A stretch of 22,142 nt of DNA. Source: Promethearchaeati archaeon (GTDB lineage: Archaea; Asgardarchaeota; Heimdallarchaeia; Heimdallarchaeales; Heimdallarchaeaceae). Both the position numbers and the translations under genes were made by a program. Each line of letters starts with the position of its first letter. Within the stretch, counting starts at the first letter, position 1. Positions 1-20,422 of the stretch are shown in pieces. The DNA is taken from the NCBI GenBank assembly GCA_013166775.1, contig JABLTJ010000043.1, positions 1 through 22,142 of the forward strand, read 5' to 3'. The notes beneath the pieces are model-generated. The model saw only the letters and a program-made list of their open reading frames with translations. It was not told the origin of the DNA and did no database searches.

Positions 1-671
1 CTTTCTATTGTTAGTTGAAAGTGATCTATACCTGCAGTTATCAAGGCATCAACAAGTTTCTTATCTTTCAATTTTCTTCCATTAGTAACCAATCCGGTGA
101 TTATACCCAAATCCTCCGCATATTCTACTAGCTCGGGTAAATCACCTCTTAATGTTGGTTCCCCTCCAGTAAATATTACATGAGGAATTCCTTTATCCCA
201 TAGCTTATCCAAAGCTGCTTTCCAATCTTCTGTAGATAATTCTTGTATTTCTCGAGGACTCTCAACATAGCATTTGGTGCACTTATTGTTACAATCATAA
301 GTGAGAGCTAAATCCATCCTAAGAGGTGCAGAGAAAGGAGTTTCATGAAGCGGAAGAATATCTTGATCTAAATCTTGCACTGGATCAATATCTGGTTTAA
401 CCATTAATTCGTTAATGTTCTGTTTCAAAGCATTCAAATCAGATTCTAATTGATCACTTGAAACCCTATATTTCCTTTTCATTTCACGAATTATTACTTC
501 ATCATCTTTTCCTGCAATTATCTTTTCGATAAATTGAGTAGCAGTTTTGTTTAAGTGAAATATTCTTGTAGCATTTACTAATAATATACCTTTACCTTTT
601 TTCTCTTTTCTTAGATGCATTCTAGCAAAAGAATCTATATTTCTCAAATGTTGCATTTTAGATTTAGACAT
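1..671 (-). CDS. Radical SAM enzyme with N-terminal PqqD/RRE-like domain (PqqE/SPASM-type peptide maturase-like); 3' end runs off the window
   Basis: Not in the ORF track; translated by hand. ATG at 671 overlaps the upstream TAA (TAATG), with an alternative in-frame ATG at 656. Sequence: MSKSKMQHLRNIDSFARMHLRKEKKGKGILLVNATRIFHLNKTATQFIEKIIAGKDDEVIIREMKRKYRVSSDQLESDLNALKQNINEL...APLRMDLALTYDCNNKCTKCYVES...VIFTGGEPTLR...LVTNG. It contains CxxxCxxC (CNNKCTKC, nt 293-270), GGEP and TNG motifs. The N-terminal 'LNKTA..I...I...M...Y.V......D' pattern fits PqqD/RRE. The frame is open to position 1. A SPASM domain cannot be seen because it would lie outside the window. Confidence 0.93.
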   Translation of the reverse strand, partial: MSKSKMQHLRNIDSFARMHLRKEKKGKGILLVNATRIFHLNKTATQFIEKIIAGKDDEVIIREMKRKYRVSSDQLESDLNALKQNINELMVKPDIDPVQDLDQDILPLHETPFSAPLRMDLALTYDCNNKCTKCYVESPREIQELSTEDWKAALDKLWDKGIPHVIFTGGEPTLRGDLPELVEYAEDLGIITGLVTNGRKLKDKKLVDALITAGIDHFQLTIE

Positions 672-2335
672 TATCTACCGCCTCCTGCACAGGCACATGC
701 ACAAGCACATGCACAAGCACAACCTCCTCCACTATAGCTTCTACCTCCACTTCTAGAGGAACTTGCTGGTCGAGTTATCTTTTGAATTGATTTATGAAAT
801 GAACTTGGCTTTTGTATTAAACCTCTCGAAAAGCTTCGAATTGGTGCCATAGTTTTGATTTTTCCAGGAGACGTAATTCTTCTGAAAGCTCCAGCACTTG
901 ACCCTCTAGTATAAGGTCTTCCTATGAAAATAAAGTAATTTCTAGTATACCAGTGTGGGTAATAATAAGTATCATACTGTTTCTCGAGTCTTCCTTCATA
1001 ATCTGCATCAACCATTATCCACAGAAAAGCATTTTGTAATTCAGGATTTGATTTCTGCATATCTAACCATGCTTTTTCAACAATTTTCTCATAATAATTT
1101 CTAGTCTTTCTTGCTGAAAATCCTTTCATCTGCAGTGTAACATCTTTAATTAAAGCTTCAATTGATTTCTTTAATTCAGTTTGATGAATAGGTTCTGGTT
1201 CAATAGCACCAGATTTTGATCCTCTTTTAAATTTCTCATCATCCGCATTTCTTCTTTTAATCCCTTTTATTGCTAATAGTTGGTATTTTGGAAGTGCTGT
1301 AATCTTGGTTTCATCGATTAAAACATCTAATCTTAAAGGAGCTCTTTGTTTTATTGCAACATGCCCTTTTTCCATCATTTCAAAAAGTAGCAAAGAAGCC
1401 ACTTGAGTAAGAGGTCTTTCAAGAAGAATAGCCACTGCCGAAGGATTCAGATTTTCCCTTACTCCACCGCCTAATGAACTGATAGAAGGAGGAAGGTATT
1501 TTCTAGATATTCTTATTTTATTTATGAAAATTAATGCAATTATTGCAAATATGATTATAATAAAAACTGTTGTTCCCATATTTTCATAAATAGTACCAAA
1601 GACTTGTAATGTCCAGAAAGGATCATATACTTTAGCATATTCTTCTGGAAAAGCTACTCCAACTTTATAAGACGAAGAAGGTGATCCTGCGGGTTGATTA
1701 AATTCTACATAGGGTCCTTCAGAAGAGCTATCATAAGTCAAAGCTGAGCCAAAATCTATTCTTCTTTGAACAACAGAAGTATCATCTAGATCATCAGGAA
1801 AATAGAAACGCACAGTTCTATCTGTGCTACCAGAGGTAAACGGACCATAAAACCATGTCTGAAAGAAGACCACAGAAGCACGACCTTCAGTTTCATCTGG
1901 GTAAACCATTTTAGGATTCTTACATTCAACTTTTAGTGTGGCAGAGTCTCCTAGTAAAATATATCCCACATTGTCTAGATGTATCTCCACTCCAATTTCT
2001 ACATATTCACTTCTTCTAATATCTGTTACTTCCTCATCATCTAACCAAGCTTTTACGGACTTCAGTTTATAATAAATATTAGGAAATCCGATGTCAATAA
2101 TATCAATTGATCTTGAATGACCATTTACGAAATCAACTTCATAGTATATGTCTATTGAACCATCCTCATTAATTTTGATTTCAGTATACATCTTAGGAAC
2201 TTCAAATTCATAATCCCATTGATCGAAATATTCGCCATCATTATTTGTTGTTTCTTTTGCAATACTCATCCCTGATAGTGATATAATAATACAGAAAATA
2301 ATTCCAGAAAATAACATATTTTTCTTTGATTTCAT
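671..2335 (-). CDS. DUF2207-like signal-peptide/single-TM membrane protein with C-terminal GGG-(CA)6-GGGR tail
   Basis: 554 aa with an N-terminal signal peptide and a beta-rich ectodomain (IKINEDGSIDIYYEVDF). A TM helix (TTVFIIIIFAIIALIFI) is followed by a cytoplasmic 'LNPSAVAILL...LLLFEMMEKGHV' segment and a Ser/Gly/Arg-rich tail, as in DUF2207-type proteins. It ends CACACACACACAGGGR. SD-like GGGGAGA at 2347-2341. Confidence 0.85.
   Translation of the reverse strand: MKSKKNMLFSGIIFCIIISLSGMSIAKETTNNDGEYFDQWDYEFEVPKMYTEIKINEDGSIDIYYEVDFVNGHSRSIDIIDIGFPNIYYKLKSVKAWLDDEEVTDIRRSEYVEIGVEIHLDNVGYILLGDSATLKVECKNPKMVYPDETEGRASVVFFQTWFYGPFTSGSTDRTVRFYFPDDLDDTSVVQRRIDFGSALTYDSSSEGPYVEFNQPAGSPSSSYKVGVAFPEEYAKVYDPFWTLQVFGTIYENMGTTVFIIIIFAIIALIFINKIRISRKYLPPSISSLGGGVRENLNPSAVAILLERPLTQVASLLLFEMMEKGHVAIKQRAPLRLDVLIDETKITALPKYQLLAIKGIKRRNADDEKFKRGSKSGAIEPEPIHQTELKKSIEALIKDVTLQMKGFSARKTRNYYEKIVEKAWLDMQKSNPELQNAFLWIMVDADYEGRLEKQYDTYYYPHWYTRNYFIFIGRPYTRGSSAGAFRRITSPGKIKTMAPIRSFSRGLIQKPSSFHKSIQKITRPASSSRSGGRSYSGGGCACACACACACAGGGR
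686..721 (-). repeat. Coding (Cys-Ala)6 repeat, TGTGCN x6
   Basis: The minus strand reads TGT GCT TGT GCA TGT GCT TGT GCA TGT GCC TGT GCA. The Ala wobble positions vary. Confidence 0.95.
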
Positions 2336-2432: not shown

Positions 2433-3383
2433 TCATTTTTTCTTCTTGGGACTAGCTTTCTTAGTTGTTTTTTGTTTTACTGTTCTTTCTCCCTTAACTA
2501 GTTTTTTTCCATTTTTAGGAGTTGGAGTTTTTTTCATGATTTTATAAGTTATTCTTTGTTTTGCTTTATCGACTTCTATTTCGATTATTAGCTTATGTTT
2601 TTTTATTCTTTCTTTCCACTGATAAGCAATTAAATCCAAGTATTCTTTTTCAGTCATCTTATTCATTTCTGTGAGAGATTCTAGAGCTTCTAAATCTCGA
2701 TAACCATCAAAAACTACTTCATAACTCTCATTCTTCTTCATGATTACACCATTCCATCCATAAACATTTGATCCAATGACAGCAATATAAGCAATTATTT
2801 TATACTGACCTTCTAGAAAACCAAACAAATTATCTAATTCCTCTTCAAATTCTCCTATATTTTTGAAAAATGCTTTGGCTTTTGTCTTTCCTTGATCTTC
2901 TTTTATTTTCATATAAATTCTGTTGATCAGTTTTACTTTCTCAATAGCTCGCATGTATCCTTTCCAGTTCTCATCTTGTCTTGGTATTTCAGTTCTTTCT
3001 CTTTGTGATTCTCCATAAAGTGGTACAGTCATTGAATTTATACTTTCGATAGCAAGCTTCTGAAACTCTCCTTTAGGGTGTTTAAGTGTCCAAGTTATAT
3101 CTACGTTATCAGTGGGGGAGATTCTTGTCGAACTATGTATTCTGAATTTACCAGTTTCAAATTTCTTTACAAACCTAGGATAGACTCTGAATCTAGCAAG
3201 TTCTTTGTCAAAATTTGCCATAATCATACTTAGAAAAACTTGAATTGCCCCCTCTAATCCTTCTCCTTCAATTATTGTCTCAATTTCCCATTGTCTTTGT
3301 TCATTAATAATTGTTTCAAGGCTTACCAGAAATTGATTGACAAGTTCTAACTCATTCTCAGAAATATTAACACTTTGAGCCAT
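2433..3383 (-). CDS. Hypothetical soluble protein with Lys-rich C-terminal tail
   Basis: 316-aa ORF with no TM segment and no motif recognised with confidence; ends KKTPTPKNGKK...KKASPKKKK. Confidence 0.8.
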   Translation of the reverse strand: MAQSVNISENELELVNQFLVSLETIINEQRQWEIETIIEGEGLEGAIQVFLSMIMANFDKELARFRVYPRFVKKFETGKFRIHSSTRISPTDNVDITWTLKHPKGEFQKLAIESINSMTVPLYGESQRERTEIPRQDENWKGYMRAIEKVKLINRIYMKIKEDQGKTKAKAFFKNIGEFEEELDNLFGFLEGQYKIIAYIAVIGSNVYGWNGVIMKKNESYEVVFDGYRDLEALESLTEMNKMTEKEYLDLIAYQWKERIKKHKLIIEIEVDKAKQRITYKIMKKTPTPKNGKKLVKGERTVKQKTTKKASPKKKK

Positions 3384-3521: not shown

Positions 3522-4238
3522 CTAGAAATACAAGTATTCCTCATCTTTCTTCTTTTTCACTTTTTTTCGGCGTTTTCTTCTTTTCTTCTTTTCTGTTTCC
3601 TCTTCCTTTTCTTCTATAGGTTCTTCTACATCTAATTCAGTTTGCAAATTTGAAGCAATATTCATCATTGTCTGGTGAAGAAGCTGTTTCATCTTGAACT
3701 TCTCTTCTCTCTCAAAAATAAGTTTCAGTTTATCTAATTCTTCTTGTTTAGCATATGAAGATATTACACTTAGTGCTATTTGTTTTGGGAAAATTGCTCT
3801 ATCATTTTGGATTACATCCAGTAAAAGATTCTTCATTTCTTTTTGATCTATCTTTGCTCTTTCATGGAGATGTTTTATTGCCATTGACCGAATAATATCA
3901 TTGCTATCTTTTTTAGTAGCATTAATTAACACTTCTTCTATTTCTTCAGAAGATGCACTACCAAGTACTTCTATAAGTGCAAGACGAACACTGTTATCTC
4001 GCTCGAAAGAGAAAAATTCGCTTAGTTTTTGAACTATCTTTTTATCTTCAAACTCCTTCAGAGTTAGGATTGCTTTAATCCTGATTTTTTCATATTTCTC
4101 TACTTCAATTACTTTCAAAAGAAACTCTATATTTTCCTTACTTTTTTTCTGTTCTGAAATTGATACTAGGATTTCAAATTTTACTCTGTCAGGTGAGTTA
4201 TTGAATTTCTTTATTCTTCCCTCTAAATCGTTTACCAT
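3522..4238 (-). CDS. HEAT-repeat (PBS lyase-like) protein with acidic/basic tail ending YLYF
   Basis: Repeated HEAT-like units (EKYEKIRIKAILTL, ERDNSVRLALIEVLG, DSNDIIRSMAIKHL, DRAIFPKQIALSVI), then EEKEEETEKKKRRKRRKKVKKKKDEEYLYF. Confidence 0.85.
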   Translation of the reverse strand: MVNDLEGRIKKFNNSPDRVKFEILVSISEQKKSKENIEFLLKVIEVEKYEKIRIKAILTLKEFEDKKIVQKLSEFFSFERDNSVRLALIEVLGSASSEEIEEVLINATKKDSNDIIRSMAIKHLHERAKIDQKEMKNLLLDVIQNDRAIFPKQIALSVISSYAKQEELDKLKLIFEREEKFKMKQLLHQTMMNIASNLQTELDVEEPIEEKEEETEKKKRRKRRKKVKKKKDEEYLYF

Positions 4239-9900: not shown

Positions 9901-10926
9901 GTGTTGGATATGAGTTCTAAAAAGAAAACAACAACCAGTAAAAGTACAAAACCTATTAAAGGGGATTTAAAGTCAATTTCAAAAAAAATCAAAGATATAA
10001 AAGAAAACATTAGTAAAGTAATTGTTGGTCAAGAGGAAGTAGTTGAAGCATTAATTGCCGCAGTTCTAATCGATGGGCATGTTCTTCTTGAAGGTGTTCC
10101 TGGAATTGCAAAAACATTAATGGTCAGATCATTAGCCTGTGCAATTTCATCGGATTTCAAAAGAATACAATTTACTCCAGATTTAATGCCATCAGATGTT
10201 ACAGGAGTTATGGCTTTCAAACCTGAAACTGGAGAATTTTACTTTAAACAGGGACCAGTTTTTACTAACATCTTACTAGCAGATGAAATTAACAGAGCCC
10301 CTCCAAAAACACAAGCAGCTATGCTGGAAAGCATGCAAGAAAAACAAGTTTCAGTTGAGAAAAGAACCTATGAACTTCCAAATCCTTTTCTTGTATTTGC
10401 AACACAAAATCCAATAGAGCAAGAGGGAACCTATCCTCTACCTGAAGCTCAAATTGATCGTTTTGCCTTCAAAGTTCTTGTCACTTATCCAGAGGAAGAT
10501 GAAGAAGTAGAGATAGTTAACAGGTTTACAGGAGAGTATGATTCTTATGATAAACTAGGGGATATTGCTCCTATTCTTTCTGCAGAAGAAGTCATTACAT
10601 TACAAAAGGCTGTCAGGAAAGAAGTAACTATCTCTGATGAACTTGCAAAATATATCGTGAGGATTGTTGGTCTTACTCGTGAGAGTGAAGAAGTAAGCAT
10701 GGGTGCAAGTCCAAGAGCAAGTCTTTGGATGACTATTGCAGCCAAAGCATCTGCTGCTATGGAAGGTAGAACCTATGTGAATCCGATGGATATACAAAAA
10801 ATCGCTAAGAATGTTCTACGCCATCGAGTTATCATAAAACCTGAGTATGAATTCGATGGAACAACATCTGAAATTATAATTGACAGAATTCTTAAACATA
10901 CACCCGCCCCAAGCATTCAAACATAG
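9901..10926 (+). CDS. moxR: MoxR-family AAA+ ATPase (start GTG 9901 or ATG 9910)
   Basis: Walker A GVPGIAKT, RIQFTPDLMPSD, Walker B ILLADEINRAPPKTQ, ATQNPIEQEGTYPLPEAQIDRF and GASPRAS. Confidence 0.97.
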   Translation: MLDMSSKKKTTTSKSTKPIKGDLKSISKKIKDIKENISKVIVGQEEVVEALIAAVLIDGHVLLEGVPGIAKTLMVRSLACAISSDFKRIQFTPDLMPSDVTGVMAFKPETGEFYFKQGPVFTNILLADEINRAPPKTQAAMLESMQEKQVSVEKRTYELPNPFLVFATQNPIEQEGTYPLPEAQIDRFAFKVLVTYPEEDEEVEIVNRFTGEYDSYDKLGDIAPILSAEEVITLQKAVRKEVTISDELAKYIVRIVGLTRESEEVSMGASPRASLWMTIAAKASAAMEGRTYVNPMDIQKIAKNVLRHRVIIKPEYEFDGTTSEIIIDRILKHTPAPSIQT

Positions 10927-10938
10927 AGCCTGAGAAAC

Positions 10939-13107
10939 ATGAAGATGAATAGAAGGGTAGTTTTCCTTTTAATCATAGGTATAGAAGTAGTTACTTTAAT
11001 TGTAATTAGTGGTTTTGTTCTTAACTCTAAGACCAATCATGTTACATTCCAAGCTCAAGCACAAGTGGATGATTTAACTGTAGTTATCGATAGAGATCAA
11101 TATTATTACATTGACAATACAATGAAAACAAACGGATATCTTTATTGGGCTGAGCTTTCAGGAAATACTTTGATACTCTATGGAAACACTTCTGATATGT
11201 TTGAAATTGCTTTCTGGGATCAGATGGGTAATCTTACAGAGACTAATGATTATACAATGTATGATGACCGTATTGAGATAAGAGTTCGGACTACAGAACT
11301 CTATTATGAAATCAGAAGTAATTATTACCCTGACTATTTTCTAGATACTAATTTCATAGTCATATTTGACACATTCTGGGCTCAATTCAGCTACCTTACA
11401 CCTGAAAATGAGGAGAGATATGCTCCAATAAACTATCATAATAAACAGATAATTCCTGAAGGAGCAGGATTAGTTAGTTATGCTCCGACAGATGGTGCAA
11501 TTATAGTAAAAGAGGGTGATTCTTTTGGCATTGTTTGGGAATATCAGGAGAAACCAATGGATCCTTTTCATGAGCCTTTGACTTATGAAATAACATATAA
11601 TTTTGATCCTATTTATTTGCAATTTACTGAACAAATGTTTCAGAATCAACAGCAACAACAAGAAAGAGAACAAATAGACAATTTACTAGATTTACTCCAA
11701 GTCTATTTCCGAATAATTACTTTTTTCGCTATCATACTAAGTTTAGTTGCAGCTCTATATGGTTACTTAAGAGCTAAGAGGAAATTCAAATCCAAATTAA
11801 ATGAAGCACGAAGTATGCCAAAAAAAATGTTGAAAGATATCGAAGCTGAAACTGAGTCTAGTAAAAGAGTTTCAGCAATGTTTAGTGCATTTATTTTAAT
11901 TCTCATAATATCACCTATCTTTCACACAAACGCTAAAACCTCTATAGACTTCAGTGTTGCAACAAATGATAGAAAAGTTGTTTTGGAGGGTATTGATTTC
12001 CAGGCAGATCCTAGTCGAAATATACAGTATTCTGCAACAATGGATTTAGGAAGAGATGGAATTGCTGTTGAAGAGATTATTATGGACATGCCTTTTTCAG
12101 TTGATAATTTCAGTATTTGGGCAAATACGGCAGAAGTTCTGGACTTTCGAGCATACAATGATTTAGGAGCTCCTGTTTCTTTTCAAGAATACTCTGATCA
12201 TTATCTCATTAGGAATGTCCAAGGCTATATTAGATATGAAGTCGTTAGACCCTATATTTATCATAATAATAGTAATATTCTAGTTTATCTTGATATGTTT
12301 TGGTTACTCTTCTTCGATCCAGAATTAGAAGAATATTCTAGAGCTGATATTAAGTATACCGTAATCATTCCTGATGGAGCAATTCTCTACAGTGCATCAC
12401 CTGAAAATATTCTAACTCTATCAGAAACTCCTGAAGGAAGAAGGAAAGTAGTTTTTGAAGATTATAATAGAGAGATAGATCCATATCATGACTTATTTTC
12501 TACACAAGTAACGTTTTCTTATATCGATGTAATAGATGCAATAGAGAATCAATCTGCAAGATTTGAACATTTTAGAGTAGAAACTGAGATTTCAAAGGAA
12601 CAACAAGCATCTCTTACTCGCAATTTAATCTTCATCAGTCTTTTAGGTTTAATAGCACCCCTCTTAGCTTTTCTCTTAACATATTTTATAGTCCGTAGAA
12701 GAATGCTTCGGAAAATTCAGGAAGAGGAACAAAAATATGAAATGTTGATTTCTGTTGAGGAAACTCAGATTCGAGCAATGAAAGAAGCGTTGAATATTGA
12801 TTTAGCAAAGGAGCCTTGGAAAGCTATGATTGGAGAATACTGGGAATTACTTGCGTATCTTAGTCGTCTAACTCCAGTAAACTTACTAGCAATGAACGAG
12901 GATTTACATGATAATATAATTGGAAAATATGTTCCCTCATTCCTAATTACAGAAACCCTGGAGTTAATTTCTACAGGTAGAACTCTAGCACAGAGTTGGC
13001 TCAATAGTGAGCAAATATATTATAATCGACAACAGGCTCGAGATTATCTTGAATCTATTATAAAATTAATCGAGAAACTTGAAAAATGGAGGAAAGAACA
13101 ACAATGA
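10939..13107 (+). CDS. Membrane protein made of two tandem homologous ectodomain-TM modules
   Basis: 722 aa with four hydrophobic segments. Internal duplication: FIVIFDTFW/ILVYLDMFW, IIPEGAGLVSYAP/IIPDGAILYSASP, MDPFHE/IDPYHD. Confidence 0.85.
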   Translation: MKMNRRVVFLLIIGIEVVTLIVISGFVLNSKTNHVTFQAQAQVDDLTVVIDRDQYYYIDNTMKTNGYLYWAELSGNTLILYGNTSDMFEIAFWDQMGNLTETNDYTMYDDRIEIRVRTTELYYEIRSNYYPDYFLDTNFIVIFDTFWAQFSYLTPENEERYAPINYHNKQIIPEGAGLVSYAPTDGAIIVKEGDSFGIVWEYQEKPMDPFHEPLTYEITYNFDPIYLQFTEQMFQNQQQQQEREQIDNLLDLLQVYFRIITFFAIILSLVAALYGYLRAKRKFKSKLNEARSMPKKMLKDIEAETESSKRVSAMFSAFILILIISPIFHTNAKTSIDFSVATNDRKVVLEGIDFQADPSRNIQYSATMDLGRDGIAVEEIIMDMPFSVDNFSIWANTAEVLDFRAYNDLGAPVSFQEYSDHYLIRNVQGYIRYEVVRPYIYHNNSNILVYLDMFWLLFFDPELEEYSRADIKYTVIIPDGAILYSASPENILTLSETPEGRRKVVFEDYNREIDPYHDLFSTQVTFSYIDVIDAIENQSARFEHFRVETEISKEQQASLTRNLIFISLLGLIAPLLAFLLTYFIVRRRMLRKIQEEEQKYEMLISVEETQIRAMKEALNIDLAKEPWKAMIGEYWELLAYLSRLTPVNLLAMNEDLHDNIIGKYVPSFLITETLELISTGRTLAQSWLNSEQIYYNRQQARDYLESIIKLIEKLEKWRKEQQ

Positions 13108-13805
13108 AACATCATAAAGGGGTAAAATTCGTCCTTCTAGTATCAGTTATAGTTATTGGCAACATTTTTGCTTTTGATATATTAGCACAAGACTCAGTGT
13201 ATACATCTCCTAAATCCACTTTTGTTGTAGATAGTAACACGAATTTTACTGTACAATCTGCAGCTCCTCTAACATGGAATCTAAATCAAAGAGTAAACCT
13301 TACAATAGAGATTGAAGCAACAGGGTTGCCTGTGGGTGAGAATATATCTATTGCTACAATTTCAATTTATTATAATATACCAGATGATCCCCACAAGAAA
13401 TATCAAGCTTCTATTGTTCCAAAAAATAATTTTACAGAGCTAGATCAGGTTCAGTTATTTAATTCTTCTTTGTTTGCTCCAGATGATACTAAGGAGTTTA
13501 ATATTACTTTGGAGTTTGTAGTTTATAGCTCTTCAATCCCAGAAAATCAGTTCTTTGAAGCTGAATTTCCAGGAGATGTAGAGTATATTGAAGTAGAGGA
13601 AGATAGAACTCTTCCGATAATTAATCTACCAGGATTCCCAGATGCTCAGACTTTTTTGCGTTGGATATTCATATTTGCTATATCATTCATACTTATTGCT
13701 ATGCCTTCAATCTTTGTTGTATCCTTTAAAATAAAAGATACTGTGCAAAATCGAAAGAAAAATCGAAAGAAAAATCGAAAGAAAAAAGGAGGGAAGAAAC
13801 AATGA
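13104..13805 (+). CDS. Signal peptide + beta-sandwich-like ectodomain + C-terminal TM anchor protein
   Basis: ATG 13104 overlaps the upstream TGA (ATGA) and has GGAGG at 13088-13092, so it is preferred to the ORF-track start at 13086. Six N-x-S/T sequons; basic cytoplasmic tail. Confidence 0.85.
   Translation: MKHHKGVKFVLLVSVIVIGNIFAFDILAQDSVYTSPKSTFVVDSNTNFTVQSAAPLTWNLNQRVNLTIEIEATGLPVGENISIATISIYYNIPDDPHKKYQASIVPKNNFTELDQVQLFNSSLFAPDDTKEFNITLEFVVYSSSIPENQFFEAEFPGDVEYIEVEEDRTLPIINLPGFPDAQTFLRWIFIFAISFILIAMPSIFVVSFKIKDTVQNRKKNRKKNRKKKGGKKQ
13749..13784 (+). repeat. Perfect 12-bp tandem repeat x3 (AATCGAAAGAAA), encoding NRKK x3
   Basis: Units at 13749, 13761 and 13773 are identical. Confidence 0.95.
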
Positions 13806-15394
13806 GTACGAAAGAAACTACAACACCATTGGAAAGATCCATGAAAAAAATGGATGTTCTTATGAGATCTTTTGGGATGCGAACCCGTATCTTCAAAGGA
13901 TCAAATAGAGCAATCGTAAAAGGAACTAGAAAAGTTTATCCCTATGAATTAAATGCAACTCTTGTTGAAACAGCAAGAGGAGTAGGTATAAGAATAAGGT
14001 TGGAAAAAATTTGGTATAGTTTTCTTAAACTCATCCCCTTCTTCATAATCTTGTTATTCTCTGTATTGCAGTATGTGGTTCCTCAAGCTGGAGAAGCTAT
14101 TGCAAGCGCAACAGGAATAAATCTATTTCTTGCACTTCTTGGTCCAAACCCTAAATTCATAGGTCTTTGGATAGTTTTACCAATTTTAGCAATTGTAGTT
14201 GTTGGTTCAGAAATACTGGAGAAAGTTATACGTGCTAGATACATACAAGATAGAATGCCACGTTTTCTTAGTGGAGCTGAATGGAATGTAGCAGAACCAC
14301 CTTTAGCTCTAGATATAATCAGCATTTCCAATAACCTATTGTGGTTAATCTATACTGTACTGATTATAGTATTTGCACCTATGTCTTTTTCAGACTGGAT
14401 TTTCGAAGGATTTCTAGAAGTTTACAATGTCGATTCCTCTGCATTGATCAACACTACAGCATTAATTTCAATTTTAGATATAGGAATCATTGCAGGAATG
14501 TTATTTGCTGTTCTTCTACAGAATTATGAAAAATTCAGAGGTAGTTTAGATCGACAACAAATTAGACATGATATAAAATTGGAAAGTCAAACAAGACAGA
14601 TGGTTCAAGCTGCAATAGGAGCAACATTACTTGCTACAATGATGATCTCCATCTACTATTTCACATTTTGGTCAAGCATCTCTATTATATACATAATAAT
14701 GTTTTATGGCGTAATAATCACTTCAACTGTCTTAGGAGTTTGGATTTTTTGGCAGAAGGAGAATTACATTTTCATCGCATTAGCTATATGGTTATTCCTT
14801 AGTGATGTTGTAATGATTTTCCTTAATTCGAATAATCCTTCTTATTCTTGGATGATTATATGTCATTTATTCCTAATACTTATTGTTATCGTTTTATCTT
14901 TGAATAAATATTTTGAGAGATATTTGGCTGAGAAAGGTGTTTATGAACCTAGCTGGATGTTCAATCTTCTCCCATTGTTCTCATATATTGCTGTCTTCTG
15001 GAAGAAGAAAGTGAGGATAACAAGAGGTGTTGAACGAGAGCTAGAAGAGATTCTAGATGAGGAAATGAAAGACAAAGTCAAAGAAAAACAACCTCTTTTC
15101 ATTGATATAAAGAAAATTAAAAAGAAAGGAAAAGAAGCAGAAAAAATAATTCAAAATTACCAGAAAGTTGTCGCAAGAATAGTTAAAGGTGAACTCAATA
15201 TTCTTTCTTTGGTCAATATCAATATGCAAATTTTGGACATTATTAAAGAAAATGAGAAACTTCACAAAGAAGCTTCAAAATTCTTACAAACTGTAGATAG
15301 TTTGCTTTGGGATGATGAATACAAGTTAAAAGAAGGTAAGGATATTCTAGAAATTTCAGAAAGAGTATATGATGAAATCGTAAAAATGGGTTGA
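13802..15394 (+). CDS. Polytopic membrane protein, unknown function
   Basis: 530 aa with about 8-10 hydrophobic segments and a charged helical C-terminal domain; ATGA overlap with the upstream gene. Confidence 0.85.
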   Translation: MSTKETTTPLERSMKKMDVLMRSFGMRTRIFKGSNRAIVKGTRKVYPYELNATLVETARGVGIRIRLEKIWYSFLKLIPFFIILLFSVLQYVVPQAGEAIASATGINLFLALLGPNPKFIGLWIVLPILAIVVVGSEILEKVIRARYIQDRMPRFLSGAEWNVAEPPLALDIISISNNLLWLIYTVLIIVFAPMSFSDWIFEGFLEVYNVDSSALINTTALISILDIGIIAGMLFAVLLQNYEKFRGSLDRQQIRHDIKLESQTRQMVQAAIGATLLATMMISIYYFTFWSSISIIYIIMFYGVIITSTVLGVWIFWQKENYIFIALAIWLFLSDVVMIFLNSNNPSYSWMIICHLFLILIVIVLSLNKYFERYLAEKGVYEPSWMFNLLPLFSYIAVFWKKKVRITRGVERELEEILDEEMKDKVKEKQPLFIDIKKIKKKGKEAEKIIQNYQKVVARIVKGELNILSLVNINMQILDIIKENEKLHKEASKFLQTVDSLLWDDEYKLKEGKDILEISERVYDEIVKMG

Positions 15395-15398
15395 GTAG

Positions 15399-16340
15399 AT
15401 GACTGTAGCAGATGAGCCAAAAGTAGTTCGTGAGGAAAAAGAAAGAATCAGAATTCCTGTGAAGAAGTTAAAACAACTTGAAATAATAGCAAAGGAGAAA
15501 TCAACGAGCTTTCTTCAAGGACATCGAAGATCAATCTTTAGAGGCCCAGGAACAGAATTTGCAGATTTAAGAGAATATATTGAAGGAGATGATCTTAGAT
15601 TCGTGGATTGGAATGCTTCTTCACGAGTTCCATTTAAGCTCATTGTAAGAGATTATGAACAAGAAAGAAACACAAACGTCATTTTGATGATGGATACTAG
15701 TTATTCGATGCTTCTAGGGGATCCTGTTCCTAGAATCAAAATGTCAGTTGAAGCTATTGCTACACTTGCTTATACTGTTATGAATAATAGAGACAATTTT
15801 GGTTGGGTGTCTTTTTCAGATAAAATCCACAAATACATCCGTCCTCGGGGAGGAAAATTGCACTTGTATCATATATTCGATGAGATGCTCAAAACATCAC
15901 CTATTGGAAGAACAAATATAGGAGAAACAGTTAAAGAGATAGCACTGGCTCAAAAAAGAAGATCAATCATTATAATCCTAACAGACTTACATGGAGATCT
16001 AGAAGGTGCGATGGATGGGTTTAAGGTTGCTAACATAAAAAGACATGAAATTAAACTAATTCATATTCATGATCCTGAAGAATTTCTCTTCCCAAAGCAA
16101 CCAAGACAAGTTAAATATCAAGATCCTGATACAGGTGAAATAAAAGCAGTCAATTTCAGCAATCTTCTAGAGAGAGGAAGATTCATGTTTGAATTAGGTT
16201 TACAAATTAGGGAGATAAACAATTTCAAACGAAATATTAGAGGATTAAACATAGATGTAATAGATGCCCCCACTACAGTTCTTACAGAGAAACTGTTGTT
16301 AGCATATTTTGGAACAAAAAGAAGGGGGTTTATGCGTTAA
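15399..16340 (+). CDS. DUF58 domain protein (vWA-like MoxR partner)
   Basis: GPGTEFADLREYIEGDDLRFVDWNASSR, MIDAS-like DTSYSM, GRTNIG, IIILTDL and DPEE. Confidence 0.95.
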   Translation: MTVADEPKVVREEKERIRIPVKKLKQLEIIAKEKSTSFLQGHRRSIFRGPGTEFADLREYIEGDDLRFVDWNASSRVPFKLIVRDYEQERNTNVILMMDTSYSMLLGDPVPRIKMSVEAIATLAYTVMNNRDNFGWVSFSDKIHKYIRPRGGKLHLYHIFDEMLKTSPIGRTNIGETVKEIALAQKRRSIIIILTDLHGDLEGAMDGFKVANIKRHEIKLIHIHDPEEFLFPKQPRQVKYQDPDTGEIKAVNFSNLLERGRFMFELGLQIREINNFKRNIRGLNIDVIDAPTTVLTEKLLLAYFGTKRRGFMR

Positions 16341-18196
16341 TGGTCAATAAGGTAAAATCATTCGTAATTATCTTACTCTTAGCAGCGAGTTCATTTAATC
16401 TCATAGTTACAATCTCAACGAATTATGTTTATGGAGGAAGTTCAAGTTCAGGAGATATTCCTCCTCCAGGAGGTAATGGAGATGATACAAGTGGTGGAAG
16501 TTCTGCGGGAGGATTGTATCTTAATTATCGAATTCCTTTGATTTTTATAGATGGACCATATGGACCAACACTCATCTCAATAACTACAGTTCAAAATAAT
16601 ACTTACATTATATTCGATTTTGAATCCATTCTATTTCCAGATAATTCAACATATTTGAATGTTGGAGAGACTTTAATCTTAGATCCAACAATAGAAATTA
16701 ATCTTAAGAATGGCTCTCTAATTCAAGCTTTTACTCCACTTCAGATTGATGTTTATAACCAACCTTCTGAATCAAGTAATGATGTCACTTATTCATATTC
16801 AGTTTTAGTTATGTCAATGTGGGGAAAAACTCATCAAGCGCCTTTTGATAATCTCAGAGCAATAATAGTTGCTGGCTTCAATCAAACTGAAATCGACATT
16901 TATACTCCAGGTGAGGAAACCCAATATTTAGAGATTAATGAAGTTGGCAATACTATAGTTGTAGAGCTGAAAAAAGGATCTATTATTGAAGCTAATGGTC
17001 CTATAGGAGTAGTATTCTTTTCACTTTCGTTAGAAGGATCATTTGCATTCACAGGTATTCCGGAATATCTTTGGGGAACAGAATATTTTGTTCATCCAAC
17101 ACCTTCGACCAGCGGAATATCATTTCTCGAAGATTATACTGAAATTGTTCTCTCAACAATCAATTTAGGAGAGAATATTCATGCAGATACTGATTTTGAT
17201 AATAGTTTTCTGGTGAATTTACCAAACAATGGAACTGTTGAATTACCAACTCATCTTCTACAAGCGGAAGAGGATTTTGATCACATTTACAGTTTATACA
17301 CAGAATTTTCCCTAAATATCATGTTTAATTATACAATAAATAGTACTCAGCACAAAGCAGCTATTTCATACATTGCTTTAGACAAGATGAGATGGGCAGA
17401 ATTATTTTTAACAACAACAGATTATCAGAACCAGAAACTTGAAAGCGTAGTTTATGAAAATAACGCACACATCCTACCGCTTCTGATATATGATCTTCAA
17501 ATATATGTAGATCTAGGAAATTATACAATTAAAAACAAAGGGGAATTCTTCGATTATTATGCGAATACATCATACGGTTTTCTTGGGAATGGTTCGTACT
17601 TTAGTTATCTTACAACTTCTCCTCCAGAACAGGGAATATGGAACAGTTCAGTAAATATTCTTTATCCCTTAAATTTGTATTCATATTTTGATAATACTTC
17701 TACAATTTTCCCATCATGGTACAGGTTTCCTAATATCAACGTAAAGGAAATCATCGTTAGTCCAACACAACCAACTGAATTAAGGAGATTACAATTGGAT
17801 ATAATTGTTCAGAATAATGGATCAATACCTTCAGCTCCTTTTTGGGTTGCAGTAACTGTTAATGATACAATTAAAATACACAAGAAATTAGAAGGATTAG
17901 ATATAAATGAGACTCTACCTGTAGTTTATGAAGAGTTTCAAGGATTTGGAAAAAAAATTCTTAATATATCTGTATTTACGGATTCATTAAGCCAGATTTT
18001 TGAACTGTACGAATTTGATAATTCTTACGAATTTTTCGTAGAAATTACCCGTAATTGGAATATAATATATATTTCAGTTGCAATAGGTGTAATGATAATA
18101 GGATTTGTAATTTATAGTATTTCCAGGAGAATAATTAAGAAGAGAAAGAAAAGCAAAACGCAATTTGATGTCATACTCAGTGATATAGAGGTTTAA
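16340..18196 (+). CDS. Membrane-anchored surface protein with IgGFc-binding-N-terminal-like repeats and a CARDB-like domain
   Basis: Signal peptide and Gly/Ser/Pro linker. 'MSMWGKTHQ', 'IEANGPIGV' and 'IPEYLWGTEYFV' resemble IgGFc_binding motifs. 'VQNNGSIPSAPFWVAVTVND...DSLSQIFELYEFDN' is CARDB-like. C-terminal TM with a basic tail; about 16 N-x-S/T sequons; TAATG overlap with DUF58. Confidence 0.8.
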   Translation: MVNKVKSFVIILLLAASSFNLIVTISTNYVYGGSSSSGDIPPPGGNGDDTSGGSSAGGLYLNYRIPLIFIDGPYGPTLISITTVQNNTYIIFDFESILFPDNSTYLNVGETLILDPTIEINLKNGSLIQAFTPLQIDVYNQPSESSNDVTYSYSVLVMSMWGKTHQAPFDNLRAIIVAGFNQTEIDIYTPGEETQYLEINEVGNTIVVELKKGSIIEANGPIGVVFFSLSLEGSFAFTGIPEYLWGTEYFVHPTPSTSGISFLEDYTEIVLSTINLGENIHADTDFDNSFLVNLPNNGTVELPTHLLQAEEDFDHIYSLYTEFSLNIMFNYTINSTQHKAAISYIALDKMRWAELFLTTTDYQNQKLESVVYENNAHILPLLIYDLQIYVDLGNYTIKNKGEFFDYYANTSYGFLGNGSYFSYLTTSPPEQGIWNSSVNILYPLNLYSYFDNTSTIFPSWYRFPNINVKEIIVSPTQPTELRRLQLDIIVQNNGSIPSAPFWVAVTVNDTIKIHKKLEGLDINETLPVVYEEFQGFGKKILNISVFTDSLSQIFELYEFDNSYEFFVEITRNWNIIYISVAIGVMIIGFVIYSISRRIIKKRKKSKTQFDVILSDIEV

Positions 18197-18199
18197 AGA

Positions 18200-20422
18200 A
18201 TGTCTCAATCAAAAGAAGATTCAATAATCAAAATAACTAATGGAGAGGAAGAATACACTCCTTTTAGTGTAATCTTAGGTAGAGATTTAATCTTCATGGA
18301 TTGGACAGTTCAATTTGGAGGGCAATTATTAGGAATAATTGTTGGAGGGTTGCTAGGATTTCTATTTGGTGTAAATGTGTTTAAATCATTATTCAGTTCG
18401 ACTGAAGCAATGCCTGCAAAAGCTTACATAGTTTTCCAAATTGGCATTGGTTTGGCAGTATTAGGGTTATCGTTGTTCTTTATCTACCGAATGGGAGTAA
18501 AAATCAATGCGCCAAGAAAGATTTCTGGTAACAAAATAAATGTAATCAAGATAGCATTTTTTGGTCTTTCTTTTATTTTTGGAATGTCTTATCTATATAA
18601 TAATCATCTTTCCCCTGCAGTGAATAGAATAGCAGGAATTCAAACACCAATAGACAATGGAGGAACTAATGGTGAAAATGGAGGAACTGATGAAGCAGGA
18701 ACTGTTGATTTTCGAACCACTAATGAATATATAATTCTTCTAATGATCATCTTTTTGTCTGCTGCCATTTTTGCTTTGCTTTATGCAGGCATAATTTATT
18801 CAGTCAATAATAAAGTTAAAACTATGCCAGGAGTAGCTATAGGTTCCGCTACTATCTTGTTAATGTTTTATCTCTTATCACAGTTTTCCTTTGGTCAATA
18901 TTTACTAGGAGCCTTTCAAGATGGGAATTATTCTTTGATACTAGTTTTTCTTACAGATTTGTTTTATTATTTAATGGTTTCATTAGTCACGATTTTGGTT
19001 TACCATACTAGCAGAAGAATCGAATTATCTATTCTAGTTCTTTTCTTTGGTTTCATGTTTGGTTTTGGAGAATCTTACAATATTGTTATTCAGATTATAA
19101 CTTTAAAATGGGGATTTCCCAATCTTTCAGATAATATTACAACAAATTCTGATATTGTAGCTCGAACTCTACAAGGTTTAGAATTTGCAGGATTGTTTGG
19201 AATGATAATTTATCCTATTCTCTTCTATAAAGATACAGTGAAATTTGCTAAAGGATTTTGGAGAACAGCAAAAAAACAAGGATTAGCATTATTGCTCTTC
19301 ACATTAGTGGTATTTATTATTGAACTATTAGTTCAGTGGGTAAGTCAGCTCTTAGGTATCTTCTTATTCTTGATAATTTTTATCGTACTTATTGGATTGA
19401 TAAATAAAATCATTTCATCACGTTATGGAAAACAAAGCTATACTGCACTCTTGACTGCAATGACTCAAGCAACATTACAGATGAGTGAAGCTATTATTCC
19501 AGGAGTAGATAAACAAATTAGATTTTTACAGGAGAATCAAAAACGAAAACAAAGACTACTGATAGCTCTTGGAACTTGGATTCCTTTAATTATTTATTTC
19601 TTGGTAATGTATATAACAACTGCAATCACAGCTCAAACTACTACAGGAACGATAGTCTTTCTAGTTACTGCTCTTCCTTTATCAATTGGTTTTATATCAT
19701 TTGCAGTTTCTTTCTATTGGGTAAAAGATCCACTAATAAAAAATCATTTCAATTATCCAATAAAAGCTGTAGGCTTTATTGGGGGGATAGTATATTTCTT
19801 CTATTCATTTTATGGTTTGGTTTATAATGAATCCGGATATTATCCTCTAATTGCCATACTCTTTACACCACTAATTGTATTGCCTTTAATCACAAAAAGA
19901 AAAATGGGGACGCTCCTTCTTACAATTTCAGGAGAGAACAAACCCAAAGCTTTAAGGGAATTTATACAAAGAAAGGATTTGGATTTTAAGAAGTTGGAAG
20001 ATAATTTCTACCAATCGCCTGCATTGCTCAGGATATGGCTTACGCTCATACTAACAAAAAGAGGAGAGAAGGTAACAACTGTTCAGAATTTAATGTCTAT
20101 GCTTACTAGTGGATTTCCTTTAGAGAGAGCTACTGGAGCACTCTGCTTACTTTATTTGAATAATGAAGAAACTATGGAAAGAATAGTTAGAATTCTGGAA
20201 AATGATAATGATCCTAGAGTAAGGGATGCAATTGCTTATGGAGTAAGATTCTATCAGGATATCACTGAAGAAACTTACAAACGGATAATTGATTCGCAAC
20301 ATTATGAAGATGATGCTAAGGTTCTGGAAACCTTAAAACAAACAATTTCAATTCTGGATTTAAGATTTTCTGGATCAGAAGAAGAAGTTGGGGAAGAAGA
20401 GGTTGGTTTGGAAGAAATCTAA
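18200..20422 (+). CDS. Polytopic membrane protein with C-terminal HEAT repeats
   Basis: 740 aa with about 14 hydrophobic segments; C-terminal HEAT-like units 'PLERATGALCL', 'DNDPRVRDAIAYG' and 'EDDAKVLETL'; acidic end. Confidence 0.82.
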   Translation: MSQSKEDSIIKITNGEEEYTPFSVILGRDLIFMDWTVQFGGQLLGIIVGGLLGFLFGVNVFKSLFSSTEAMPAKAYIVFQIGIGLAVLGLSLFFIYRMGVKINAPRKISGNKINVIKIAFFGLSFIFGMSYLYNNHLSPAVNRIAGIQTPIDNGGTNGENGGTDEAGTVDFRTTNEYIILLMIIFLSAAIFALLYAGIIYSVNNKVKTMPGVAIGSATILLMFYLLSQFSFGQYLLGAFQDGNYSLILVFLTDLFYYLMVSLVTILVYHTSRRIELSILVLFFGFMFGFGESYNIVIQIITLKWGFPNLSDNITTNSDIVARTLQGLEFAGLFGMIIYPILFYKDTVKFAKGFWRTAKKQGLALLLFTLVVFIIELLVQWVSQLLGIFLFLIIFIVLIGLINKIISSRYGKQSYTALLTAMTQATLQMSEAIIPGVDKQIRFLQENQKRKQRLLIALGTWIPLIIYFLVMYITTAITAQTTTGTIVFLVTALPLSIGFISFAVSFYWVKDPLIKNHFNYPIKAVGFIGGIVYFFYSFYGLVYNESGYYPLIAILFTPLIVLPLITKRKMGTLLLTISGENKPKALREFIQRKDLDFKKLEDNFYQSPALLRIWLTLILTKRGEKVTTVQNLMSMLTSGFPLERATGALCLLYLNNEETMERIVRILENDNDPRVRDAIAYGVRFYQDITEETYKRIIDSQHYEDDAKVLETLKQTISILDLRFSGSEEEVGEEEVGLEEI

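Follow-up and report, generated by a model that had tools for sequence, protein, structure and literature searches.

What does a radical S-adenosylmethionine (SAM) enzyme do when its gene is coupled to that of a membrane protein with a tail of alternating Cys and Ala? The question is raised by a 22,142-nucleotide stretch of DNA from a Heimdallarchaeia-type Asgard archaeon (GenBank GCA_013166775.1, contig JABLTJ010000043.1), here called the window, which is contig C38 of a 3.85-Mb genome that is 89% complete. An earlier note on this DNA described a 554-residue protein with the C terminus GGG-(CA)6-GGGR-stop, followed by an overlapping gene missing from the open reading frame (ORF) track, and the sequence confirms both. 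The analysis presented here suggests that the enzyme is probably a dedicated maturase acting on the membrane protein in place, with Cys thioether crosslinks in the tail as the likeliest chemistry. The system is real, widespread and uncharacterised, and in it a membrane protein as a whole is probably modified chemically in a manner that has not been described before.

Cys residues occur at positions 15, 138, 539, 541, 543, 545, 547 and 549 of the 554-residue protein, and six of these eight fall within its last 16 residues. The enzyme begins with a RiPP recognition element (RRE), where RiPP denotes a ribosomally synthesised and post-translationally modified peptide. Its ORF leaves the window at the contig end, and contig C29, which shares 144 identical overlapping bases, completes a 434-residue protein. 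Independent contigs from four sequencing runs also continue past window position 1. The two genes and their elements are arranged as follows.

671..2335, minus strand: 554-residue single-pass membrane protein, distant DUF2207 relative and proposed substrate (ORF call, homologues, hhalign)
2261..2317, minus strand: N-terminal hydrophobic stretch, residues 7-25, signal peptide or anchor (hydropathy)
1643..2218, minus strand: extracytoplasmic beta-sandwich, residues 40-231, ribophorin-I/M1-aminopeptidase N-terminal fold (AF2 model and VIA-align)
1520..1579, minus strand: transmembrane (TM) helix, residues 253-272 (hydropathy; helix in the model)
1472..1498, minus strand: juxtamembrane YxxPxI motif and next strand, residues 280-288, predicted internal RRE recognition sequence (conservation, complex model)
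824..1453, minus strand: cytoplasmic helical domain, residues 295-504, weakly GOLPH3/Vps74-like and missing from the gut form (VIA-align)
722..763, minus strand: flexible Ser/Gly/Arg-rich linker, residues 525-538 (sequence; low predicted local distance difference test score, pLDDT)
674..721, minus strand: (Cys-Ala)6-GGGR tail, residues 539-554, proposed modified core (conservation; active site of the model)
669..673, minus strand: TAATG stop/start overlap, translational coupling (TAA 673-671, ATG 671-669)
3..671, minus strand: first 223 residues of the 434-residue RRE-radical SAM-SPASM enzyme (profile matches; remainder C29:1-778)
426..581, minus strand: RRE/PqqD domain, enzyme residues 31-82 (PF05402)
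270..293, minus strand: CxxxCxxC SAM-cluster motif, C127/C131/C134 (sequence; 69 of 69 family members)
About C29:810-1567: class I methyltransferase gene after the enzyme

The tail tract reflects neither chance nor slippage. The (CA)n tract is unique in the six-frame translation of the genome, and a relative about 91% identical differs in the tail at five places, each a synonymous Ala codon, which indicates selection at the protein level. At least 3,639 homologues of the protein were found, the closest of which carry the name Heimdallarchaeota. All but two of the 120 best end in CACAGGGR, the exceptions being incomplete or divergent records, and C541 to R554 is invariant across 104 aligned sequences with a mean identity of 39%; outside the tail, homologues are only about 30% identical.

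The tail and the enzyme travel together in archaea and bacteria, which extends the adjacency reported in the earlier note to many genomes. We chose 80 genome loci by tail patterns, from Asgard archaea, Bathyarchaeia, Methanomassiliicoccales, Chloroflexota, Planctomycetota and others. The enzyme lies at most 7 kb from the tail gene in 73 of them (70 intact, three frameshifted), three more are cut by contig ends, and four have it elsewhere in the genome (E = 1e-178 or better); all 77 judgeable loci are thus accompanied by an enzyme, adjacent or distant. Separate profile searches of 300 Asgard genomes, the scope of the enzyme-side survey, found both genes in 106, neither in 177, the tail alone in four and the enzyme alone in 13, counts in which kin are not independent. 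As controls, 30 true DUF2207 proteins have a poly-Gly end with no Cys in the last 25 residues, and no radical-SAM match occurs within the 1.5-kb flanks of their matched domain.

The window part of the enzyme matches the PqqD profile PF05402 at 26.1 bits against a cut-off of 23.4, which upholds the PqqD/RRE-like N terminus proposed earlier, and a relative at locus L004 scores 29.5. Radical_SAM (PF04055) scores 68.3 bits on the window part and 97 bits on the L004 relative, and a SPASM domain, which the earlier note proposed to look for in the remainder, is present on C29 (PF13186, 40.9 bits, cut-off 21.5). C127, C131 and C134 are invariant in 69 family members, and the auxiliary-cluster residues C350, C368, C405, C408, C414 and C418 are invariant in the family as well. 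The best solved relative is the sactisynthase SkfB (E = 1e-25). The enzyme nevertheless stays far under named-family cut-offs (SkfB 108 of 300, StsB 80 of 625, AlbA 69 of 850), reaching none of those for SkfB, AlbA, StsB and PapB, and TIGR04463 falls outside its best 25 NCBIfam matches. At six active-site-proximal positions, taken from PMC10288494 and mapped only approximately, by motif, the enzyme has Y, T, N/V, T, Q, S and SkfB has Y, T, F, S, Q, L, with three identical residues and one conservative change; on this approximate mapping it is closer to SkfB than to CteB, PqqE or SuiB.

Hydropathy places hydrophobic stretches at residues 7-25 and about 253-272 of the membrane protein, with basic residues after the second, which suggests an N-out/C-in topology. 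Its AlphaFold model (pLDDT 84) has one TM helix and a disordered linker and tail. The ectodomain aligns with Ost1 (6c26; Z 15.6, root-mean-square deviation (rmsd) 2.7, 178 residues), and the cytoplasmic helical domain has only two structure matches with Z of at least 5, namely 3kn1 (Z 6.2, rmsd 4.0, 157 residues) and 2zih (Z 5.2). At these middling Z values the GOLPH3 match gives no function. No Pfam or NCBIfam profile reaches its cut-off on the protein; PF09972 and PF20990 do not match it, and its relatives match them at E = 0.003-0.14, under the cut-off. The earlier label "DUF2207-like" therefore has no profile hit behind it, but it holds by profile comparison: hhalign against the 30 DUF2207 proteins gives 98% and E = 3e-13 over 434 columns, and atlas neighbours carry DUF2207, which makes the protein a distant relative of this family. 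No NCBIfam model covers the Cys tails. Two folds familiar from the endomembranes of eukaryotes, a ribophorin-I-like ectodomain and a cytoplasmic domain with weak likeness to GOLPH3, are thus combined in one prokaryotic chain; the same architecture occurs in bacterial DUF2207 proteins and is therefore not specific to Asgard archaea.

How the enzyme might recognize this protein was modeled with the L004 pair, which is 80% and 54-66% identical to that of the window, where the enzyme is split over two contigs. The modeled complex pairs the L004 enzyme, loaded with SAM and three clusters, with the 280-residue cytoplasmic part of its partner. It scores 0.70, compared with 0.00 for the best of three controls; the scoring mark is reached by 58 of 80 solved and two of 110 mismatched pairs, figures that apply only approximately to the L004 pair. 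The runs share at least 36% of contacts, and partner pLDDT is at least 69. In the model, RRE residues 37-44 and 67-85 contact partner residues 3-19, just past the TM helix and equivalent to window residues 280-288, while the last tail residues (273-279) lie beside C350, C368, Q369 and S370. The model supports binding of the RRE and the tail without demonstrating it.

Conservation points to the same juxtamembrane segment. All 198 proteins of the Cys-Ala (CA) type have the Tyr, 85% have the Pro, and 150 have the full YxxPxI-type motif; the full YxxP motif with a hydrophobic residue at +5 is also found in 13 of 15 proteins of the (CHSA)n type described below. YxxPx[LVIFA] is a known recognition motif of lasso peptide RREs (PMC13381572, PMC12710340). 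The strand that would pair with the RRE is an eight-residue insertion missing from the DUF2207 controls, which also have no YxxP spacing where the segment is readable. The handle for the RRE is predicted next to the membrane, at residues 280-288, rather than within the last 60 or so residues that the earlier note proposed to co-fold with the RRE, and it would probably be overlooked in a co-fold or co-expression limited to the tail.

Two variant forms show which parts of the system are constant. A second Asgard family has a 720-residue homologue with a (CHSA)n tail ending in CVSGGFR, transcribed away from a diverged enzyme, and two further genomes have related tails beside the enzyme. Tail type and enzyme co-vary, in that (CHSA)n tails pair with the diverged enzyme, in which Q369 is replaced by Ser, and with another gene order. 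The (CHSA)n homologues (L082-L100, L254:8608-11382 and L255) have 11-12 Cys and many His, and their loci also hold a 131-residue unknown protein and a metallophosphoesterase. Asgard homologues once taken as a tail-less control (family f11, G004 and G285) were discarded in this role, as they actually have (CHSA)n tails and the enzyme.

The other form comes from gut metagenomes (L102-L221) and has the ectodomain and TM helix with no GOLPH3-like domain. Its tail, CACACAGGGR, is extended by AGCS and about 20 residues, and the enzyme is adjacent in 59 of the 60 loci with room for it. This enzyme is twitch-like, without the Cys of the second auxiliary cluster; its N terminus misses the Pfam PqqD profile, yet profile comparison with the main RRE shows homology (hhalign 95.6%, E = 1e-8). 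Of the 88 gut tail proteins, 16 contain a fused zinc ribbon, and an AAA ATPase gene follows in 32 loci. Being common to the CA, CHSA and gut forms, the tail, TM helix, ectodomain and enzyme are the constant core of the system.

We propose that the RRE would bind the internal leader, consisting of YxxPxI and a short strand, on the cytoplasmic side directly after the TM helix, which would tether the enzyme at the membrane. The flexible Gly/Ser linker would then allow the Cys-Ala tail to enter the active site, although it lies some 260 residues beyond the leader. A 5'-deoxyadenosyl radical could abstract a hydrogen from a tail residue, most likely from the C-alpha of Ala or Gly, and the sulfur of a tail Cys, held in position by the first auxiliary cluster, could close a thioether ring; thioether synthases are known to hold substrate Cys on an auxiliary cluster (PMC10177961). 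The membrane protein would thereby keep the product as its own rigid, sulfur-rich terminus, which plausibly binds a metal or a partner. That the tail undergoes a covalent change is quite probable, and given such a change a thioether is somewhat favored; we only infer its register and purpose. The earlier proposal of the tail as radical-SAM substrate is thus supported by the gene linkage and by a controlled model with the tail in the active site, and the modification itself is a prediction.

Ala is the likeliest acceptor, since it occupies both the -1 and the +3 position of 63-81% of tail Cys in both tail types, and for the same reason Cys offsets would not fix the register. Counting offsets to tell a link from Cys to Ala(i+3) from one to Ala(i-1) accordingly fails. 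A hairpin register like that of StsA (i+5, +9, +13) fits the six-Cys tail on paper, does not fit the forms with spacers, and is not claimed. It is possible, if doubtful, that the system goes further still: a RiPP-type enzyme might read an internal, membrane-proximal leader and modify the far-end core of an intact membrane protein across a folded domain, by chemistry new to repeats of this type, such as alternating epimerisation or adjacent Cys-Ala rings, with a dead paralogue as reader or chaperone, and represent a widespread class.

Several other genes recur in the 80 loci. A 120-residue protein with two TM segments, a C-terminal CxxC..CxxC zinc ribbon and the end EEPKW is encoded in 62 (for example, L020:6509-6877), mostly just upstream of the tail gene; it is absent beside Heimdallarchaeia loci, and the genome of the window has only a weak, unlinked match (E = 0.007). 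A methyltransferase is a neighbor in 47 loci. About 43 loci have an enzyme paralogue with the RRE and barrel, without CxxxCxxC and mostly without the SPASM Cys, which looks like a pseudo-enzyme and is possibly a reader or chaperone; examples among L010-L080 are L026:10117-11277 and L033:5486-6850. Clustering of the neighbors in these loci, which covered ORFs of at least 70 residues, gave no recurring small precursor, peptidase, transporter, LemA or SPFH protein; the lack of a precursor and a peptidase is in keeping with the membrane protein itself as substrate.

Single loci show further arrangements. A pseudo-enzyme runs in frame into the tail protein at L080:5291-8776, likely through a deletion, and this fusion is not used as evidence, being a single case with a truncated junction. 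Tail genes stand in tandem at L010:5016-8797, two enzyme copies flank the tail gene at L101, and a second ectodomain gene follows it at L096:8148-8534. Upstream of the tail gene in the window, on the same strand, are a 316-residue protein with a Lys-rich end and no Pfam match (2433-3383, minus) and a HEAT-repeat protein with a Lys/Arg-rich end (3522-4238, minus), neither recurrent in related loci. Farther away, a MoxR-type AAA ATPase is followed by six large genes for proteins of 239-740 residues (9901-20422, plus) with no NCBIfam family and no Pfam family over the cut-off where tested. Elsewhere in the genome, a 137-codon frame at C75:28281-28691 (plus) has a CDCDCDC tract among DQDR-type repeats.

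A number of observations weigh against a maturase of this kind. The main anomaly is in Asgard family f17, where nine of 19 genomes (72-89% complete) have the enzyme, and profile and pattern searches of these nine gave no tail gene; in the same family (L253, L256-L258) the enzyme and methyltransferase share a conserved locus that is not linked to the tail gene. A genome consisting of a single contig (77% complete) encodes the tail protein but gives no full enzyme match. On the recognition side, the gut form is without the YxxP motif and has a changed RRE strand, one of the three model runs scored 0.49, and the model may have passed through memory of solved RRE-leader and enzyme-peptide structures (CteB, SuiB, lasso RREs). 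The neighbor clustering took in ORFs of 70 residues or more, and a smaller precursor could have escaped it. As to chemistry, Cys-x-Cys tracts can bind metal unmodified, and the enzymes conserve a fourth Cys close to their first auxiliary cluster (C336 in 97%, C353 in the gut form), which may fully ligate this cluster, filling a site that is open in thioether synthases, or donate a hydrogen.

The last point leads to a variant inside the preferred explanation, which takes a minor share of the total probability: the enzyme may modify the tail without a thioether, for example by epimerising alternate residues with C336/C353 as hydrogen donor, or by oxidising Cys C-beta to a thioaldehyde or formylglycine as anSME does. 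Strict Cys-Ala alternation suits the alternating L/D patterns known from PoyD and EpeE, although the (CHSA)n form does not alternate and every tail form keeps its Cys. The extra Cys is present in all three subfamilies, and fully ligated clusters mark the oxidases anSME and BtrN; SkfB, however, also has four Cys and still keeps an open site on its cluster (PMC6231123). Similarly, no NCBIfam sacti or ranthi model reaches its cut-off on the enzyme, but the proximal residues and the best structure match are sactisynthase-like. More distant, and unlikely, is an unmodified tail serving as a metal or Fe-S arm of a protein that anchors the enzyme through the RRE, while the enzyme acts on a lipid, cofactor or other protein, with the tail perhaps supplying it with sulfur, metal or electrons. 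Metals are typically bound by Cys-x-Cys and Cys/His repeats; the zinc ribbon, both as neighbor and as fusion, and the nine genomes without a detected tail gene would fit as well, and the dead paralogue, by keeping its RRE and barrel, suggests that binding itself has value. Such an arm does not account for the fixed length from the last Cys to the end, the fixed AGGG end, the active-site residues that shift with tail type (Q369 to Ser in the CHSA form) or the tail end in the active site of the model. To our knowledge, moreover, every characterised RRE-SPASM enzyme acts on the same chain to which its RRE is bound.

The earlier note also considered a cleavable product and suggested looking for peptidases or transporters downstream. 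Neither is among the conserved neighbors in any of the three forms, and it is therefore very unlikely that cleavage sets the modified tail free as a small RiPP of the ordinary kind, with the membrane protein as a very large leader. The ectodomain and TM helix are kept in all forms and the DUF2207 ancestors work without a tail, against which stand the resemblance of the tail to a core, the disordered Gly/Ser/Arg linker that precedes it and offers Arg sites, and the occurrence of large leaders among RiPPs (cited in PMC12710340). Chance adjacency or a DNA microsatellite artefact, to which the low-complexity tail and the gene's position at a contig end might have pointed, has negligible probability: it is already refuted by the conservation of the tail over dozens of lineages, with differences that are synonymous only, and by the co-occurrence counts. 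A dedicated maturase for the intact membrane protein remains the preferred reading.

If this reading is correct, RiPP logic is not confined to small secreted peptides and also covers a membrane protein that stays intact and is conserved in thousands of anaerobic archaea and bacteria, Asgard archaea and gut microbes among them. The usual leader-then-core layout would be broken, with an internal handle and a whole domain between handle and core, and such a layout could be useful for engineering site-specific protein crosslinks. The system also offers an initial way into the large DUF2207 family, and because nature provides three tail types, each with its matching enzyme, the chemistry can be tested directly. 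Searches of the (mostly non-subscription) literature for the tail motifs, for DUF2207 with radical SAM and for Asgard membrane-tail systems returned primer or linker matches or nothing, and the same literature held no intact membrane-protein substrate, internal leader or Cys-Ala core.

The kind of reaction is not new: QhpC and, as of September 2026, CrpA are known examples of proteins that radical-SAM enzymes crosslink. Precursors are normally small free peptides, as the earlier note stated, and QhpD and CrpC are protein-substrate precedents (PMC13692751). CrpC of Methanococcus voltae (TIGR04463; 2026) is an archaeal RRE-radical SAM-SPASM enzyme that crosslinks Cys in a protein (PMC13692751). 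As here, the target is the C-terminal Cys-rich region of an adjacently encoded protein (CrpA, 28.8 kDa), the product is not a small peptide, and metal binding is suspected. CrpA differs in its N-terminal leader, its 17-residue C-X-X-Q/D repeats and the lack of a described membrane anchor, compared with a 554-residue membrane substrate, an internal leader and a Cys-Ala core without Gln or Asp, which rules out that report as a description of the present system. QhpD likewise uses an RRE-radical SAM architecture to install Cys thioethers that stay in a functional subunit, QhpC of quinohemoprotein amine dehydrogenase (PMC7876137; PMC13692751). Unlike the protein studied here, QhpC is a small subunit with a cleaved N-terminal leader, Cys-Asp/Glu acceptors and a known role with an enzyme cofactor, and no genes of that dehydrogenase are found here.

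The system works like a sacti or ranthi maturase and is not a member of those systems, because it has no small precursor among conserved neighbors of at least 70 residues and no peptidase, and reaches no family cut-off. With the hairpin sactisynthases SkfB, AlbA and StsB (PDB 6EFN; PMC6231123; PMC10288494) it shares the RRE-radical SAM-SPASM/twitch layout and, by the approximate motif mapping, may share similar proximal residues; StsA has a CxCxC core linked to Gly (PMC10288494). Their substrates are small free peptides accompanied by peptidases and transporters, and sactipeptide and ranthipeptide precursors in general are short peptides with an N-terminal leader, whereas the Cys core here is the end of a 554-residue membrane protein. 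The predicted recognition resembles that of lasso peptide and LPP RREs, with YxxPx[LVIFA] and a predicted strand addition to RRE beta3 (PMC13381572), but the motif is internal, follows a TM helix and would be recognized by an RRE that forms part of a radical-SAM enzyme, with no lasso cyclase or leader peptidase. DUF2207/YciQ-like proteins (PF09972, PF20990) are collinear with the membrane protein over 434 columns, sharing the ectodomain, TM helix, cytoplasmic domain and Gly-rich end. The present protein differs from them in being without the extra TM pair and in its acquisition of an enzyme partner, a Cys tail and the inserted strand.

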